Assembly: GCA_964408165.1 (NCBI GenBank)
Contig: CAYOYH010000001.1
Coordinates: 1 to 38,805 of the forward strand
Source: an uncultured Candidatus Saccharibacteria bacterium
GTDB lineage: Bacteria; Patescibacteriota; Saccharimonadia; Saccharimonadales; CAYOYH01
Length of the DNA stretch: 38,805 nt
Direction: 5' to 3'
The first letter of the stretch is position 1. The number at the start of each line of letters is the position of its first letter. The notes under the pieces are model-generated. The model saw only the letters and a list, made by a program, of their open reading frames with translations, had not been told where the DNA came from and made no database searches. Both the position numbers and the translations under genes were made by a program. This document shows positions 6,947-36,905 of the stretch, in pieces.

Positions 6947-7001
6947 TATTGGTAATGTGCACACAAATATGGCGGTTTTCCCTAGAATAGGAGAATGGGA
7001 G

Positions 7002-7994
7002 TTATAGGCAATATCGTGGAGGTTTTGGCTCTTCCGTACGACTATAAAGATACCAATCTACCAGTCTCATTTGGTGCACTACAGGCATGCCTCTATGAGC
7101 CTTTAATTTGAGCCGTATTTGAGAGTTTATACCACCCTCAATGTGGTTAGTAGTACTAGGTAGTTCTGGGTGTGGTCGGTAGCTTGAACGCAGTAAATCG
7201 TCAGTAATTTCATGTAACTGTTTGTAAGCACTTCTTAACCTAGCGTGAGTGTAGTGCCATCGTCTTTGACCAGGCTGAGGATCCTGCCTCATGGTTCTCT
7301 CGTCTATATAGCTGTGGTGCTTTCGGTGCCAATGTTTTAACTTTCTCTTCCAGCTTCTGGCTTGTCGTCTGGTGCGAATATGCAATAAGTTTCGCGTCAG
7401 TTGTAGTAATTCTTGTGCTGGAGCAGACTTAGGGCGTAGAGTTAGTTTTGACTTCACATTGAGCCAGGCGTGGAACCGACAACGCTGAACAGTAGTCTCT
7501 GGCCAACAGATAGCAATTGCTTTTAGCATGCCTCTTTGACCATCACAGACAACATACTTAGGTTGAGGTAACAACCGCAACAACTCAGTCCAGTACTGGC
7601 TACTTTCATAGGGCATCCAGACCCAGGTAATAACATAGTCGGTAGTTCTAGCAATAAGACAAACATTACTGCCAACTCGAATGCCATCAACAACAACGGC
7701 ATGGTGTATTTCACCAGTCAGGGTGTTTGGTGGGGCTACATTCCAGCACCATGATGTTTGATTGCGGAAAGTTCGCGGTGGTTGCTCTAGCTCGTTCTGA
7801 GCCAGCTTACCAAGCAACCAAGACACAAATCTTTCTAGTTCGTAGCCACGACTTAAATCTGGGCGTAAACTAAGTTTGCTTTGCGCACAGCAGTGGCACA
7901 GCCAGCGTTGCTTACCAGTGGCAGTTTTGCCGCGTTTTTGGAGCTTGTTTTTACATGTCTCGCAATGATAATTGCATGTTCTTTTTTCATTCAA
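7002..7994 (-). CDS. Zn-ribbon DDE transposase (IS1-InsA-like finger; IS256/IS1249-group-like core)
   Basis: CETCKNKLQKRGKTATGKQRWLCHCC finger, plus VVCDGQRGMLKAI, QRCRFHAWLN and TTNHIEGGINSQIR. Confidence 0.75.
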   Translation of the reverse strand: MNEKRTCNYHCETCKNKLQKRGKTATGKQRWLCHCCAQSKLSLRPDLSRGYELERFVSWLLGKLAQNELEQPPRTFRNQTSWCWNVAPPNTLTGEIHHAVVVDGIRVGSNVCLIARTTDYVITWVWMPYESSQYWTELLRLLPQPKYVVCDGQRGMLKAIAICWPETTVQRCRFHAWLNVKSKLTLRPKSAPAQELLQLTRNLLHIRTRRQARSWKRKLKHWHRKHHSYIDERTMRQDPQPGQRRWHYTHARLRSAYKQLHEITDDLLRSSYRPHPELPSTTNHIEGGINSQIRLKLKAHRGMPVVHQMRLVDWYLYSRTEEPKPPRYCL

Positions 7995-8071
7995 TTAATG
8001 TCTCACGACATTAATTCAGTGTCAATAACAGAGGGGGAATCGCTTAAAAACCACCACGATATCGCCTATAA
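7002..8071 (-). mobile_element. insertion sequence with 25-bp imperfect terminal inverted repeats
   Basis: ttataggcaatatcgtggaggtttt (7002-7026) matches the reverse complement of 8047-8071 at 23/25 positions. Confidence 0.75.
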
Positions 8072-8164
8072 CCCTATAATTATGTACTTTGTAGCCCTCT
8101 AGTTAGAGTTTCCAGCTTCCAACCCCTCCGCTATCTAGCGGACCTCCACCCCCTAGTTGCTACT

Positions 8165-8333
8165 TCAGGACTTACGCTTCGTAAGTTTGGTGTCAGTTTG
8201 CTCCAGATGGAGTCAAGGATTATTTTCTCTGGCAAAAACTACAGCCAAGCTACGCTTTAGCGCCAGAAAAATAAGTCTGAAGCCGTCTGGTTAAGAACAG
8301 GCGTAAATAGTAAACGCATAAGCCTTAAAGGTC
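8165..8333 (+). repeat. intergenic repeat family D, copy 1 (~170 bp)
   Basis: Aligns along its length with 23518..23688. Starts with the hairpin caggacttacg..cgtaagt. Confidence 0.8.
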
Positions 8334-8392
8334 TTTTACTTCGTGGCTGGCCAAAGGTTGTCAGCTGGTCATACACCGTCGGTTATACATAT

Positions 8393-8428
8393 ATTATACG
8401 TATATGACGGCCGTCAATATAGTATAAT
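8393..8428. promoter_or_regulatory. imperfect copy of the 36-bp palindrome, overlapping a TATAAT box 6 nt upstream of the PaaX-like ATG
   Basis: attatacgtatatgacgg|ccgtcaatatagtataat. TATAAT is at 8423-8428 and the ATG at 8435. Confidence 0.6.
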
Positions 8429-8434
8429 GTTTAC

Positions 8435-8989
8435 ATGAGCGGTGTTTTAGCGTGCCACGATATCACATATAGAATTTTGGGGAATATTCTTAGGCTGGGT
8501 TTGAAGGGCACCGTTTGGACCACTAAAACACTGGTAAAAGAAGTTTATAAGCTTATTGACCCAACAACTAAAAGAGAGCTTTCCAGAGCCGGAAAACAGT
8601 CTGAAACAGAGGTAAAAAGATTACTTTACTATGCCAAGAGGAAAGGATATATCGACCAAGACTATCGGACGACTCAGGCCGGCAAACAAAAACTTGCAAG
8701 CTTGAGCCTTCAGCCGTTGTCGATTCCCAAATCATGGAACAAGAAATGGAGCATGATAATTTTTGATGTTCCGGAAGAAAATCGAAGGTTTCGTTACCAT
8801 GTGCGTAGATTGATCAAGCAGCTCGGGTTCGTTCAGCTGCAGCAAAGCGTATGGATTCACCCCGCAGTCTGTGAAAAAGAATTCAAGTTGATAAGCGACG
8901 CCTACTCAGCCGGTGGATCACTGCTACTACTTTCAGTAAATCATAGAAGTACACTAGATAAACACCTAAAACATTTCAAGACTAAATAA
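8435..8989 (+). CDS. PaaX-like transcriptional regulator (wHTH plus Cas2-like ferredoxin-fold domain)
   Basis: WSMIIFDVPEENRRFRYHVRRLIKQLGFVQLQQSVWIHP matches the PaaX/Cas2-like core pattern. The N-terminal ~90 aa are wHTH-like. Confidence 0.65.
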   Translation: MSGVLACHDITYRILGNILRLGLKGTVWTTKTLVKEVYKLIDPTTKRELSRAGKQSETEVKRLLYYAKRKGYIDQDYRTTQAGKQKLASLSLQPLSIPKSWNKKWSMIIFDVPEENRRFRYHVRRLIKQLGFVQLQQSVWIHPAVCEKEFKLISDAYSAGGSLLLLSVNHRSTLDKHLKHFKTK

Positions 8990-9012
8990 CTATAAGTCCA
9001 AATAAATACATA

Positions 9013-9048
9013 ATTATACGTATATGACGGCCGTCATATACGTATAAT
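9013..9048. promoter_or_regulatory. perfect 36-bp palindrome between convergent genes (operator and/or bidirectional hairpin)
   Basis: attatacgtatatgacggccgtcatatacgtataat is its own reverse complement. Confidence 0.7.
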
Positions 9049-9098: not shown

Positions 9099-9707
9099 TC
9101 AGTCTAATGTTGGTTTAGCGATAATGTGAAGCCATTTTTCATCGGTTTTGGCTGATGACCAAGATATAATAAACCCACTCTCCTCTAGTATTTGAATTAG
9201 TGGCTTCTGCTCCCAATACTGAAAGAACCTCGGAGCACCAATTTTTGCTTCCGACCATTCGCTACCGCTTCCTCTTTTCATGGTGAAGGTTAAAATACCT
9301 TCTCTTCTCAAGGCAAGGCGTATTTTTCCTAGAGTAGCATTTAATTCCTCCGGCGTTAGATGCAATAAAACGGCGTTGGCAAAAATCATGTCAAAACTTC
9401 CTTCAATCTCGTCCGTTATCACATTCAGAAGCTCTGTGTTTTTGCCATTTTGATTCATATAACCAACGAATGACTGCGCTGCATCCGTCCTAGCTACCGC
9501 GAAACCCTTACTTTCCATGTAGTCCGCATCTCTACCGAAACCACTTCCAATCTCAAGAATCCTTGCGTTTGATGGTAACTTTGCTAGTGCGGTGTCGATC
9601 CATATTTTCTGACCACCCGAAACTTCATGCGGCGTACCGTCAATATATTCTTGTAAATAATTATTGTATGAATCTAGCGTCTGCTCGTTCGTCTCTGACA
9701 TGTACAA
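9099..9707 (-). CDS. class I SAM-dependent methyltransferase
   Basis: Motif I ILEIGSGFGRDADYM and motif post-II FDMIFANAVLLHL. Confidence 0.75.
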   Translation of the reverse strand: MYMSETNEQTLDSYNNYLQEYIDGTPHEVSGGQKIWIDTALAKLPSNARILEIGSGFGRDADYMESKGFAVARTDAAQSFVGYMNQNGKNTELLNVITDEIEGSFDMIFANAVLLHLTPEELNATLGKIRLALRREGILTFTMKRGSGSEWSEAKIGAPRFFQYWEQKPLIQILEESGFIISWSSAKTDEKWLHIIAKPTLD

Positions 9708-23471: not shown

Positions 23472-23517
23472 GCGGGCACGATTATAGACGAACGAAGAAT
23501 AAACACTAGTTTTATAA

Positions 23518-23688
23518 TCAGGACTTACGTGTTCGTAAGTTTGATGCTAGTTTGCTCCAGGTGGAATCCAGAGTTGTTTTCTCTGGTGAAAACATAGCCA
23601 AGCTACGTTTTAGCGCCAGAAAAATAAGCCTGGAACCGTCTGGTGTGAACGGTCACAAACTTACGAGCGCGTAAGCCCTGAAAGTGTC
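23518..23688 (+). repeat. intergenic repeat family D, copy 2
   Basis: Aligns with 8165..8333. Confidence 0.8.
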
Positions 23689-35044: not shown

Positions 35045-35401
35045 ATGAACCCTGAGAAATCGACACCTCATGGCGTGTTTAACGATTTTGAATTTACACC
35101 TGTGGGCTGGTGGTTAGACACCTTAGCGGAGGAAATTGCAAAAGAATTAGGGAAGGCTCCTAGAATTGGGCGAGGCTCTGTGGTATTGGAACAAAACGAG
35201 AACGAAACTATTGTTTCGTTCCGCCAAAATGGTTCAGAATCAATAGTCAGTATCCTCGAGATAGATGGTCGAATCGTTCTGAAAGTGCACCCTGAAGCAG
35301 AAATCCTAACCCCTGACCACGCTGACGACATCGCTCATGAATTAGTACACCAGCTCGGCTACGCCGAACATCATCCTGGCCCCAGTAAAAGTTGTTGCTA
35401 G
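35045..35401 (+). CDS. hypothetical small protein with a C-terminal HExxH motif
   Basis: ORF with an ATG at 35045 and the motif AHELVHQLGY. A TTGACA lies at 35009-35014. Confidence 0.45.
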   Translation: MNPEKSTPHGVFNDFEFTPVGWWLDTLAEEIAKELGKAPRIGRGSVVLEQNENETIVSFRQNGSESIVSILEIDGRIVLKVHPEAEILTPDHADDIAHELVHQLGYAEHHPGPSKSCC

Positions 35402-35474
35402 GCATCGGTTTCTAGGAGTCGTGAATAACTACTTAAAACCGCACCGCAATCCTGACATTTCAAATTCAATTATT

Positions 35475-35500
35475 CAGGACTTACGCGCTCGTAAGTCCTG
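35475..35500 (+). terminator. 11-bp-stem hairpin related to the family D repeat head; likely terminator
   Basis: caggacttacg-cgct-cgtaagtcctg is followed by ttattat. Confidence 0.5.
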
Positions 35501-35678
35501 TTATTATAACTTTCTGAGGGCCGGAGTATTTATTATAATTTCATCTGTAAATTTAGTAAGTTAGCAGAGTGCAGTCTTTGCCAGCTCTTGCGAGTCAACT
35601 GACAGAGGTGTCCCTGCTGGCAAGTACTGTAAATATCGCCCCTTGAGTAAACAACTACCTCGCCGTTTCATTCTCACT

Positions 35679-35714
35679 ATTATACATATATGACGGCCGT
35701 CATATATGTATAAT
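35679..35714. promoter_or_regulatory. third copy of the 36-bp palindrome (perfect)
   Basis: attatacatatatgacggccgtcatatatgtataat. It differs from the 9013 copy only by a symmetric G>A / C>T pair. Confidence 0.7.
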
Positions 35715-36016
35715 TTGGGTCGCGACCTCAAGTTCGATTATTATACAAAAGGTTACGATCGTGAGTTTTGGTATAATAATTATTCCCCGGCAACAGATAA
35801 GAACTGTACCAAAATCTGTGGTCGTGTCTCTCGAAAAAACAACGAGAAACAAGTCGAAGCTATCTTGCACAGGCTTAAAACTTCACTGGCAGTGGCGGTG
35901 GTGTTTTAAAAATACTTGCCTCGGCAGTAAACCATCCTGTGGTTTTTTATAAAACTCGGATGAAACGCTCGCTCGACATTCCCCCTTGTGCTTTTTGAGA
36001 TTATATTATAAAAGCA

Positions 36017-36045
36017 TTGACATAATCATTTTTATATTGTAGGAT
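36017..36045 (+). promoter_or_regulatory. candidate sigma70-type promoter (TTGACA, 17-nt spacer, TAGGAT)
   Basis: TTGACA at 36017-36022 and TAGGAT at 36040-36045. Confidence 0.35.
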
Positions 36046-36689
36046 GTAGCCATCATCGTTTTGCGGCATGTGAGGTGGAGACTCACGAACAAGCGGGATG
36101 ACCGTTTGGACGCCCCGGGAAGATTGGGAAGTTTCACATCAGAATACAGGACTATTCGATAGGTCCGACGTTTCAGTCGGACTGTCTAGATTAGTTTTTT
36201 GTTTTCTGGAGACTCTCGCATATAGGCAACGCATTAAACCGCGAGAAATCTGTATGAGAGTGGAGTTCGAGGAAGAGCCGAGCACTAGAGTGAGCTGTAT
36301 GAATAATACTGCAAACGAAGCGCGCCAGGTTCTGACGACGAAATACGCCTCATGCAGGTTTCTGAGCCAAGTAGGACGAGTGGGCACATTAATAAGTCAA
36401 ATCGTTACAGTTTATTATTTTTCGAATTCTGACACAGCAGATCAGTTCATGAAGTGAATTCATGAATTCGCTGCTGTTATTGGCGACTACATCGTTGCTG
36501 AACTCCAGTAACTTTTTAGCGGTACCATCTTGTACAGCTAAAAAGCTGCTTCGTTCGCGCCTTGTGTTCGTCTAATCAGAATACGAAAAAATAACTTTGC
36601 TTCGTTTACTGAGAGCAGCTATATGTGCGCGGGGGTTTTATAAATGCATGCCGCAATTATTCACCCTGCGCATATTTCTCTGCTTTCAG

Positions 36690-36905
36690 TGCGTAATGGA
36701 TTCGTCTATTACAGATGAGGCAGTAGGTCTATGGCTTCGGCTATAGACTCTGTAACACTACTCAATAAAACCTGTTTTTAGAACATTTGATACTTCTTCT
36801 TTGATTTCGGGCAGTGTATTGCGGGCGATAATTCGCCTGTAGCACACTGCCCAAACGGGACAGTAGTAGCTTCGGCTATTTAAGCTATCCCGCAAGGGAA
36901 GGAGT
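36690..36905 (+). ncRNA. candidate structured leader/ncRNA with three UUCG-capped hairpins and one GCAA-capped hairpin
   Basis: Hairpins at 36693-36712, 36726-36749 and 36865-36880 (UUCG loops). A nested stem joins 36809-36817 and 36844-36852. ccc-gcaa-ggg at 36889-36898 abuts the SD. Confidence 0.4.

Follow-up and report, generated by a model that had tools for sequence, protein, structure and literature searches.

Why a single short gene should stand between two long palindromes, one just ahead of its start codon and the other just behind its stop codon, is the question raised by a locus of an uncultured Candidatus Saccharibacteria bacterium (GenBank assembly GCA_964408165.1; contig CAYOYH010000001.1, positions 1 to 38,805). 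This stretch of 38,805 nucleotides (nt), hereafter the window, is contig C1 of a 744-kb genome in 69 contigs (G000) that is 94.7% complete, and the gene in question encodes a PaaX-like protein of 184 amino acids (aa), composed of a winged helix-turn-helix (wHTH) and a Cas2-like fold. A preliminary description, prepared from the letters of the window and its open reading frames (ORFs), had proposed that the palindromes serve a leaderless, autoregulated gene or, as another possibility, that gene and palindromes form a small mobile or recombination cassette. On balance, we consider it probable that the protein is a sequence-specific dimeric repressor that would occlude its own leaderless promoter and would also bind a second site behind the gene. 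The features on which this argument depends are the following, with the two arms of each palindrome separated by a slash.

8354 to 8381, plus strand: 28-nt segment immediately left of the upstream palindrome, recognized by alignment and found also beside a solo copy on contig C32 and in the relative L080
8393 to 8428, no strand assigned: imperfect A-type palindrome, proposed operator 1, ATTATACGTATATGACGG/CCGTCAATATAGTATAAT
8423 to 8428, plus strand: TATAAT -10 hexamer in the right arm of the imperfect copy, proposed leaderless promoter
8435 to 8989, plus strand: short PaaX-like gene, 184 aa, from the ORF list and Pfam PaaX_M
9013 to 9048, no strand assigned: perfect A-type palindrome of 36 bp, proposed operator 2, ATTATACGTATATGACGG/CCGTCATATACGTATAAT, with 18 of 18 pairs
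35679 to 35714, no strand assigned: perfect A-type palindrome standing alone (solo copy), symmetrically substituted at two positions (8, G>A; 29, C>T)

Both palindromes are found where the preliminary description had placed them. The downstream copy pairs throughout and begins 23 nt past the last base of the stop codon (8989), and the upstream copy has the same left arm together with a right arm, CCGTCAATATAGTATAAT, that is shifted, such that 13 of 18 pairs form when the arms are compared position by position. The 18-nt arm has five matches in the window at three or fewer mismatches compared to 0.03 expected, which excludes chance. The sequence likewise bears out the hexamer of the upstream copy, where TATAAT is followed by GTTTAC and then by the ATG at 8435, a spacing of 6 nt with no Shine-Dalgarno motif between hexamer and start codon, as well as the TATAAT boxes that read outward at both ends of the perfect copy. 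The outward-facing boxes are most simply a by-product of symmetry, because the right end of this symmetric site must be a -10 box. In the solo copy at 35679-35714 both partner positions, 8 and 29, are altered and the symmetry is retained. The 28-nt segment to the left of the upstream palindrome travels together with it, and the downstream palindrome, which is capable of forming a hairpin, occupies the gap between the short PaaX-like gene and the methyltransferase gene that converges on it. Rfam and ARAGORN together return only one tRNA in the window, and the palindromes coincide with no known RNA family.

The description of the product as a wHTH joined to a Cas2 fold also holds. The 184-aa protein matches Pfam PaaX_M (PF20803) at 5.4e-19, with 68.5 bits against a cut-off of 24, and has sub-threshold matches to wHTH-PRTase_assc (23.7 bits, cut-off 27) and, weakly, to Cas2. 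The AlphaFold2 model, built on 32 homologues (mean pLDDT, the predicted local distance difference test, of 86), displays an N-terminal helix, three helices and a hairpin (approximately residues 29-80), and a β-α-β-β-α-β domain (approximately residues 101-184). This model aligns with PaaX (8a39) over 186 columns (Foldseek probability 0.96, TMq 0.46), and its C-terminal half returns many Cas2 structures at a probability of 1.0 (5zyf, 5xvn, 8ia4; TMt 0.5-0.7), along with the RNase toxin VapD (6zi1; probability 0.99), GhoS and, for the full length, Rv0674. By sequence, a search of the PDB with the family profile gave only non-significant wHTH and Cas2 matches and did not recover PaaX, and the C-terminal half alone gave nothing useful. 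PaaX_C (PF08223) matches neither this protein nor any other in the genome, and Cas1 (PF01867) is similarly without a match there. With PaaX_C and Cas1 missing, PaaX_M matched and a wHTH-type fold modelled, the product is therefore a two-domain, short PaaX-like protein, referred to here as mini-PaaX, that lies outside the PaaX equivalog of NCBIfam (TIGR02277; 28.7 bits against a cut-off of 264.55). It also falls below the Cas2 cut-offs (20.4 against 23.8 bits for PF09827 and 23.1 against 24.5 bits for TIGR01573), and the only paralog in the genome, located on contig C18, exceeds the NCBIfam Cas2 cut-off with 30.8 bits. Scans with Pfam, NCBIfam, PADLOC and PHROGs found no transposase, recombinase or HUH/Y1 domain in the protein.

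Proteins of this kind are numerous. A profile search of 1.84 billion representatives returned 4,383 clusters at E ≤ 1e-10 (clusters at 50% identity), mostly full-length matches of 180-200 aa. Among 32 diverse aligned members, D111 and E114 never vary, and the same is true, or nearly so, of R120 and the motif GF.QLQ.SVW. D111 closes strand 1 (residues 104-111), the place of the catalytic Asp in Cas2, and the one true three-domain PaaX relative that was aligned (27% identity over residues 77-159) bears a Gln at this position (IYQVPE compared to IFDVPE). Across eight site types, the most variable parts of the protein are helices 1 and 2 of the wHTH (residues 29-52), the wing and the C-terminal helix, and the most conserved part is strands 2-3 of the Cas2-like domain, observations that are descriptive, as the eight types all come from related lineages and are too few for a test of residue-site covariation.

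Does the palindrome belong to the gene? Within this genome, A-type copies number seven (C1:8393, C1:9013, C1:35679, C7:21583, C13:15631, C16:5622 and C32:41), and the wider pattern ATTATA-N20-30-TATAAT occurs 17 times compared to 0.35 expected. The paralog, here paralog B (C18:14818-15363; 44% identical), has the layout of the A cassette, built with another palindrome. Its upstream site, ATTATACTTTTGTGTCCGG/CCGGACCAGATAGTATAAT, carries a TATAAT 7 nt before the ATG, its downstream site, ATTATACCAAACTGTCCGG/CCGGACAGTTTGGTATAAT, is perfect, and the site core, present in three B-type copies, reads GTCCGG/CCGGAC compared to GACGG/CCGTC at the A cassette. The solo A copies are identical units of 36-40 nt with unrelated flanks, often found beside an orphan site of another type (35679 and 35740 in the window; C13:15631 and 15692). 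Two of the orphan sites lie in the window:

35740 to 35777, no strand assigned: orphan C-type palindrome, ATTATACAAAAGGTTACGA/TCGTGAGTTTTGGTATAAT, resembling the cognate site of L006, the homologue in the sister species
35503 to 35539, no strand assigned: orphan E-type site, ATTATAACTTTCTGAGGGCCGGAGTATTTATTATAAT, resembling the cognate site of homologue P0005 in L085

Further C-type copies are present at C14:8614 and C34:410, the E-type copy at C13:15692 is identical to the L085 site at 35 of 37 positions, and over 40 nt a D-type orphan at C16:5704 shares 95% identity with the upstream site belonging to a third cassette, found in L095. The genes cognate to these C, D and E orphans exist in relatives but are missing from the assembly, which is 94.7% complete and whose contigs break at such repeats, so that the genes may be unassembled.

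Beyond this genome, the survey covered 26 loci from other Patescibacteria (Nomurabacteria, Paceibacterota, Kaiserbacteria, Zambryskibacteria and others), in which almost all homologues are flanked on either side by a site specific to the locus, with a centre of CGGCCG, CGATCG, CGGTCG or similar. In 22 of 24 loci, the best match between upstream and downstream flanks lies above the 95th percentile of the shifted-window controls, and in 16 of them it lies above every control, counts to which related, and hence not independent, loci contribute; a cross-locus control was unsuitable because related Nomurabacteria loci have one motif in common. In three other genomes the site occurs at its own gene only, in one or two copies and with no solo copies. 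The A-type core was found in none of 60 relatives from the same order, including a 98%-complete genome of the same genus (G001), and none of them has a close (A-type) homologue, the best match being 46% identical. A homologue of any kind is present in only 12 of the 60, with 0-4 matches per genome.

The A-type protein and its site are encountered together in more closely related metagenome contigs. In L080 and L093, where the A protein is 92 and 86% identical, respectively, the A cassette occupies the same place as here, between the orthologue of a contig C32 gene and the methyltransferase-atpC genes. The downstream palindrome is identical at 36 of 36 positions in L080, L093, L091 and L095, and the proteins encoded nearby reach only 67-78% identity, compared to 86-92% for the A protein. 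The upstream copy of L080 retains the same imperfect right arm, and the L083 homologue (65% identical) keeps the core ATGACGG/CCGTCAT with different outer positions. Paralog B, which lies beside mnmA-alaS, has positional counterparts in six related genomes, with proteins 49-61% identical, and at 51-53% identity the cores of the mnmA-linked sites differ as follows.

G000, paralog B: GTCCGG/CCGGAC
L006: CACGAT/CGTACG
L084: GCGACGG/CCGTCTC
L085: GACGG/CCGGAG
L086: CACGG/CCGTG
L087: TGCGAT/AGCAAC

Ends similar to ATTATA(A/C) ... TATAAT are kept in all of the mnmA-linked sites. Protein and site co-vary and co-occur, and the bracket is family-wide. The preliminary description had allowed that the palindrome might prove abundant throughout the genome and unlinked to this gene family; the genome scan, with its seven A-type copies, shows that it is not abundant, and the paralog-specific sites, the family-wide bracket and the co-occurrence speak for linkage, because the site tracks the gene within the genome, across the family and in the 60 relatives.

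Three contigs from other metagenomes bear on how the core is to be read. A groundwater contig (L090:534-980) has a distant short PaaX-like homologue followed by ACTAAAGTTATATGACGG/CCGTCATATAACTTTAGT, in which the 20-nt core equals that of the A type while the outer arms and the protein are very different, a warning against regarding the core alone as the determinant of specificity. The 20-nt A-type core is also embedded in an inverted repeat of far greater length (aataattctatcgtgtccgttgac...) at L088:7200-7420 and L092:2750-2960, on two unrelated contigs of 10.5 and 3.4 kb, respectively, where tblastn detected no short PaaX-like gene.

How the upstream site might act is suggested by its position. 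The earlier claim of a leaderless, palindrome-embedded promoter serving autoregulation emerges as the best-supported reading of the locus, as inferred from sequence. A -10 hexamer that ends 6-7 nt before the ATG, with no intervening Shine-Dalgarno motif, recurs in approximately 19 of the 33 loci of the family. Of 502 long ORFs in the genome, 74 have a -10-like hexamer 6-11 nt upstream of their first ATG, where such hexamers form a sharp peak, and 92 are preceded by a strict Shine-Dalgarno 5-mer; glmS (C7:21826-21845) and mnmA have the same proximal -10/ATG arrangement. There seems to be a sizeable class of leaderless genes in this Saccharibacteria genome, beside a Shine-Dalgarno class. Given the 6-7 nt spacing in the family and the genome-wide peak, a leaderless transcript from 8423-8428 is plausible and would fit the habit of the lineage. 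A sigma-70 promoter scan made no call at 8423-8428, there being no -35 hexamer, and none was found inside the palindrome at a usable spacing. To the co-variation of protein and site is added the precedent of PaaX, which autorepresses its Px promoter by steric hindrance of RNA polymerase through a symmetric 39-bp site, TGATTC-N27-GAATCA (PMC9493321).

In the mechanism that we propose, a dimer of mini-PaaX, held together by the Cas2-like domain and with no ligand-binding PaaX_C, would recognize its own 36-bp palindrome as double-stranded DNA. A leaderless start would leave the upstream site untranscribed, so that the site must act as DNA, and the -10 box would be covered by protein bound there. 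Overlapping both this box and the leaderless start, the weakened upstream copy would, when bound, block RNA polymerase, with negative autoregulation as the outcome. The perfect downstream copy would provide a second, stronger site, probably cooperating with the first by looping or as a roadblock, and could, as a hairpin, also terminate transcription between the two converging genes. The protein and its site evolve together, within a unit that is exchanged as a whole. Binding, repression, the leaderless start and looping are each predictions from the arrangement of the locus.

Several observations weigh against such a repressor. The Pfam model of the PaaX N-terminal winged helix (PF07848) is unmatched in the 184-aa protein at E ≤ 0.01, and the invariance of D111, replaced by Gln in the true PaaX relative, hints at an activity beyond dimerization. 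In most genomes the sites are private to their own gene, which would leave a regulator without an obvious output. No start codon follows a downstream or solo copy at 6-7 nt, and the places of these copies are not conserved among relatives, so that no regulon is evident. Perfect palindromes of 36-46 bp are also unusual as operators, and recognition of a hairpin or cruciform would fit them as well.

Whether the palindromes instead function in the transcript, as hairpins (a terminator, a stabilizer or a protein-binding stem) that are bound or cleaved by the Cas2/VapD-like domain with the symmetry of the DNA being secondary, can be judged from both copies, and we think it quite unlikely. As RNA, the downstream copy does fold into a 16-bp stem (-22.9 kcal/mol, z = -3.2) and is flagged by a terminator scan, on the minus strand only, for the convergent methyltransferase gene; downstream copies begin 0-37 nt past the stop codon in many loci, and Foldseek places the RNase toxin VapD and GhoS among the structural matches. 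The symmetric double change at 35679-35714 preserves pairing, but fits dimer binding or pairing alike. The upstream copy, with the -10 box at its end 6 nt before the ATG, however, lies 5' of the likely transcript start, the plus strand has no T-run directly after the stem (one begins approximately 13 nt later), and solo copies occur in contexts other than transcript ends. Many sites of the family are poor hairpins, yet the upstream sequence is repeated downstream, and the mismatches in downstream palindromes, read on the sense strand, comprise 10 G.T, 7 A.C and 17 others and thus reveal no G-U excess. All 36 bases are, moreover, constant across the relatives, although compensatory drift would be allowed. 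Recognition of the duplex would be more likely than that of a hairpin or cruciform on these grounds. A conventional regulator, for which the solo palindromes would be operators of other genes, is a further reading, and a very unlikely one. The solo A sites are indeed intergenic, with two between divergent genes (on C13 and C16) and another upstream of glmS (on C7), and a -10-like hexamer is present at each site end. These sites nonetheless lie 150-700 nt from the nearest start codons, and in no case does a start codon follow the TATAAT at 6-7 nt; for glmS, a proximal -10 box of its own is present and the site is missing in the sister species, solo positions differ among close relatives, and other genomes have no solo sites. 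That the palindrome is only a generic intergenic repeat or terminator that happens to flank the gene hardly deserves credence. This genome is rich in other short intergenic repeats and the palindrome is also found away from the gene, but with palindromes specific to each paralog, a bracket throughout the family, sites private to the gene in other genomes, and no A-type site found in the 60 relatives, none of which has a close homologue, coincidence is contradicted already by the comparative data.

The behaviour of the unit as a whole is a separate matter. Gene and palindromes are gained, lost, replaced and flipped as a cassette. In the sister species of the same genus (G001), the orthologue of the C32 gene and atpC lie 56 nt apart, with both the cassette and the methyltransferase gene absent. 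The mnmA-linked cassette reads in the direction of mnmA in G000, L006, L084 and L087 and is inverted in L085 and L086, which is what recombination between the flanking palindromes would produce. Close relatives have solo copies elsewhere (in the dnaA-rnpA spacer of L095, and in L091), and the orthologous places in G000 are without them. A clean insertion boundary was not found, as the dnaA-rnpA spacers of L095 and G000 are otherwise unalignable, and G001, at approximately 77% DNA identity, is too distant for its intergenic regions to be compared. In the place where relatives have the whole cassette, contig C32 has a solo perfect copy with the same 28-nt left flank and the end of an insertion sequence (IS) 2 nt away. 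The mobile or recombination cassette of the preliminary description has real support in the absence of cassette and methyltransferase gene from the syntenic site of G001, in the two orientations beside mnmA and in the non-orthologous solo copies; no recombinase or transposase domain is present, and no clean empty site was found.

These dynamics, together with the private sites and the retained Cas2-type Asp, keep alive a reading in which mini-PaaX is the agent of a selfish or domesticated cassette similar to those of repetitive extragenic palindromes (REPs) and their associated tyrosine transposases (RAYTs), or a nuclease, a reading that is improbable in our estimation but not to be set aside lightly. 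The protein would act on the palindromes as extruded hairpins or cruciforms, autoregulation being secondary, and its Cas2-type acidic residues may nick, copy, invert or excise DNA, thereby seeding solo palindromes and moving or flipping the cassette. A gene flanked by cognate palindromes, solo copies of 36-40 nt that are identical within unrelated flanks and occupy different places among close relatives, and orphan sites of families C, D and E that match the cognate sites of homologues in other species would all be explained in this way, as would the loss of the cassette at the syntenic site of the sister species, its two orientations beside mnmA and its patchy occurrence. The invariant D111 and E114, the Cas2-level score of paralog B, the symmetric double substitution in one copy and the IS ends at 2 and 12 nt from palindromes point in the same direction. 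Set against this are the lack of any transposase, recombinase or HUH domain in the protein and of Cas1 in the genome, copy numbers of 1-7 rather than tens to hundreds, and the absence of solo copies from three other genomes. No target-site duplication and no clean filled/empty pair were found, phage records gave no family matches, and plasmid matches were exclusively true PaaX genes of Actinomycetota. The A cassette, moreover, lies in the same place in relatives at 86-92% identity, with a protein more conserved than its neighbours, and so looks vertically inherited and under purifying selection, and inversion and loss are possible by ordinary recombination between inverted repeats. In its broadest form, this idea would make short PaaX-like proteins a large and so far undescribed class of Cas2-derived factors that process DNA in a sequence-specific manner, in which D111 and E114 nick or resolve the private palindrome, possibly as a hairpin or cruciform, to drive the copying, inversion, excision and replacement of their own cassette. 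We regard this broader form as doubtful; if true, it would reveal, in the reduced genomes of the candidate phyla radiation (CPR), a replicator similar to REP/RAYT but with a Cas2 fold as its basis, and possibly a living relative of pre-CRISPR Cas2.

The autorepressor that we favour can be placed among known systems, each of which it resembles in part. In common with PaaX of E. coli and Pseudomonas (8a39, 3l09), mini-PaaX has, as modelled, a winged-helix fold followed by a Cas2-like middle domain, and it is predicted to share the features described for PaaX, namely repression of its own promoter by occlusion of RNA polymerase at a long symmetric site (PMC9493321). Unlike PaaX, it ends at residue 184 without PaaX_C, leaves the Pfam N-terminal model unmatched and scores far below the NCBIfam equivalog cut-off; its site is a continuous perfect palindrome found on both sides of the gene and private to each homologue, and its invariant D111 corresponds to Gln in the single true PaaX relative that was aligned. 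With Cas2 and VapD it shares the ferredoxin-like fold, in which FD(V/I)PE and GF.QLQ.SVW resemble strand 1 and strands 2-3 of Cas2, respectively. It differs from Cas2 in its fusion to a winged helix, in scores that for the window protein are sub-threshold, and in a genome that is devoid of Cas1, and the 36-bp repeats bracket the gene itself instead of spacers as in CRISPR arrays. The likeness to REP/RAYT systems (Nunvar et al. 2010, PMC2817692; Bertels and Rainey 2011, PMC3116915) includes a single-copy gene flanked by cognate palindromic repeats, paralog-specific repeat families, solo intergenic copies, and a largely vertical inheritance with patchy distribution. Mini-PaaX is not, however, an HUH/Y1 (IS200/IS605-like) transposase, and the seven A-type and three B-type copies here compare with tens to hundreds in those systems, and most of the genomes checked have no solo copies.

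Invertible segments offer another comparison. In the Hin and Gin systems, the recombinase gene lies inside a segment bounded by imperfectly palindromic hix sites; here, a one-gene segment of approximately 0.6 kb is bounded by two palindromic sites, and the mnmA-linked cassette is found in both orientations, but mini-PaaX has no serine or tyrosine recombinase domain and the inversion is seen only between species. Type II antitoxins and the C proteins of restriction-modification (R-M) systems are also small HTH proteins with a palindrome overlapping their own promoter and co-variation of protein and operator. Mini-PaaX is distinguished from them as a single gene without a partner toxin, nuclease or methylase operon, by the second site behind the gene, and by a Cas2-like domain in place of the usual dimerization folds. 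Although it falls outside PaaX proper, Cas2 proper and the REP/RAYT systems, mini-PaaX would, as we are inclined to believe, work like PaaX at its own promoter.

The cassette is accompanied on either side by genes of other kinds:

6999 to 8074, minus strand: Mutator-like IS beside the cassette, from the domain scan
9099 to 9707, minus strand: class I S-adenosylmethionine (SAM) methyltransferase (Methyltransf_23/11/12, TehB-like), convergent with the cassette

The Mutator-like IS has the terminal repeat CCACGATATYGCCTATARCCC, and 2 of the 11 ends found adjoin short PaaX-like palindromes, at distances of 2 nt (C32:18-38) and 12 nt (C18:15421-15441); the IS may have a target preference for AT-rich, -10-like palindrome ends. 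The flank at 8075-8090 (TATAATTATGTAC) is also similar to a palindrome arm. The methyltransferase gene accompanies the A cassette in L080 and L093, and both are missing from the sister species. It has a weak PADLOC match to mad2 (3.9e-8) over the generic methyltransferase domain, and is a neighbour of the cassette.

Solo and orphan sites are found in intergenic regions with features of their own. The region from 35400 to 36900 comprises 1.5 kb without a convincing ORF and harbours the E (35503), A (35679) and C (35740) sites along with a hairpin with an 11-bp stem (35475-35500); lost cassettes may have left their remains here, or the region may comprise clustered promoters of non-coding RNAs. 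The solo-bearing regions C16:5418-6376 and C7:21326-21843 are mosaics of the short tandem motifs ggagctgggag, ctccatctccatctcc and cgtatttcgtatttcgta, and have a 29-nt block, gttcccgacgctacggtcgggacagg, in common. An intergenic repeat of approximately 170 nt is found between the IS and the cassette (8165-8333), again in the window at 23518-23688, and at C14:5287-5439, C6:20381-20535 and C32:105-165, the last copy being partial, in the opposite orientation and adjoining the solo palindrome. An ATTATA...TATAAT element at 23481-23518 is located directly 5' of another copy of this repeat.

A search of the literature on PaaX in combination with Cas2-like proteins, Patescibacteria or winged helices found no description of a palindrome-bracketed module. 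New here are the series of mnmA positional orthologues in both orientations, the orphan site types that match the cognate sites of relatives, the conservation of the site at 36 of 36 positions beside diverged neighbours, the genome-wide leaderless class, the association with an IS, and the contrast at D111 with a true PaaX relative. Patescibacteria, or CPR bacteria, have tiny genomes with few recognizable regulators and almost no experimental genetics, and in these organisms the cognate site of a regulator could be read from the flanks of its gene across approximately 4,400 clusters, which would provide a testable code of protein-DNA recognition and a large natural set of orthogonal repressor/operator pairs. 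The family would also place a Cas2-type fold in a sequence-specific DNA context outside CRISPR and, should the protein itself drive the replacement, the inversion and the orphan sites, would represent a new kind of small genomic replicator. Even the conservative reading would still describe leaderless, operator-embedded promoters in Saccharibacteria.

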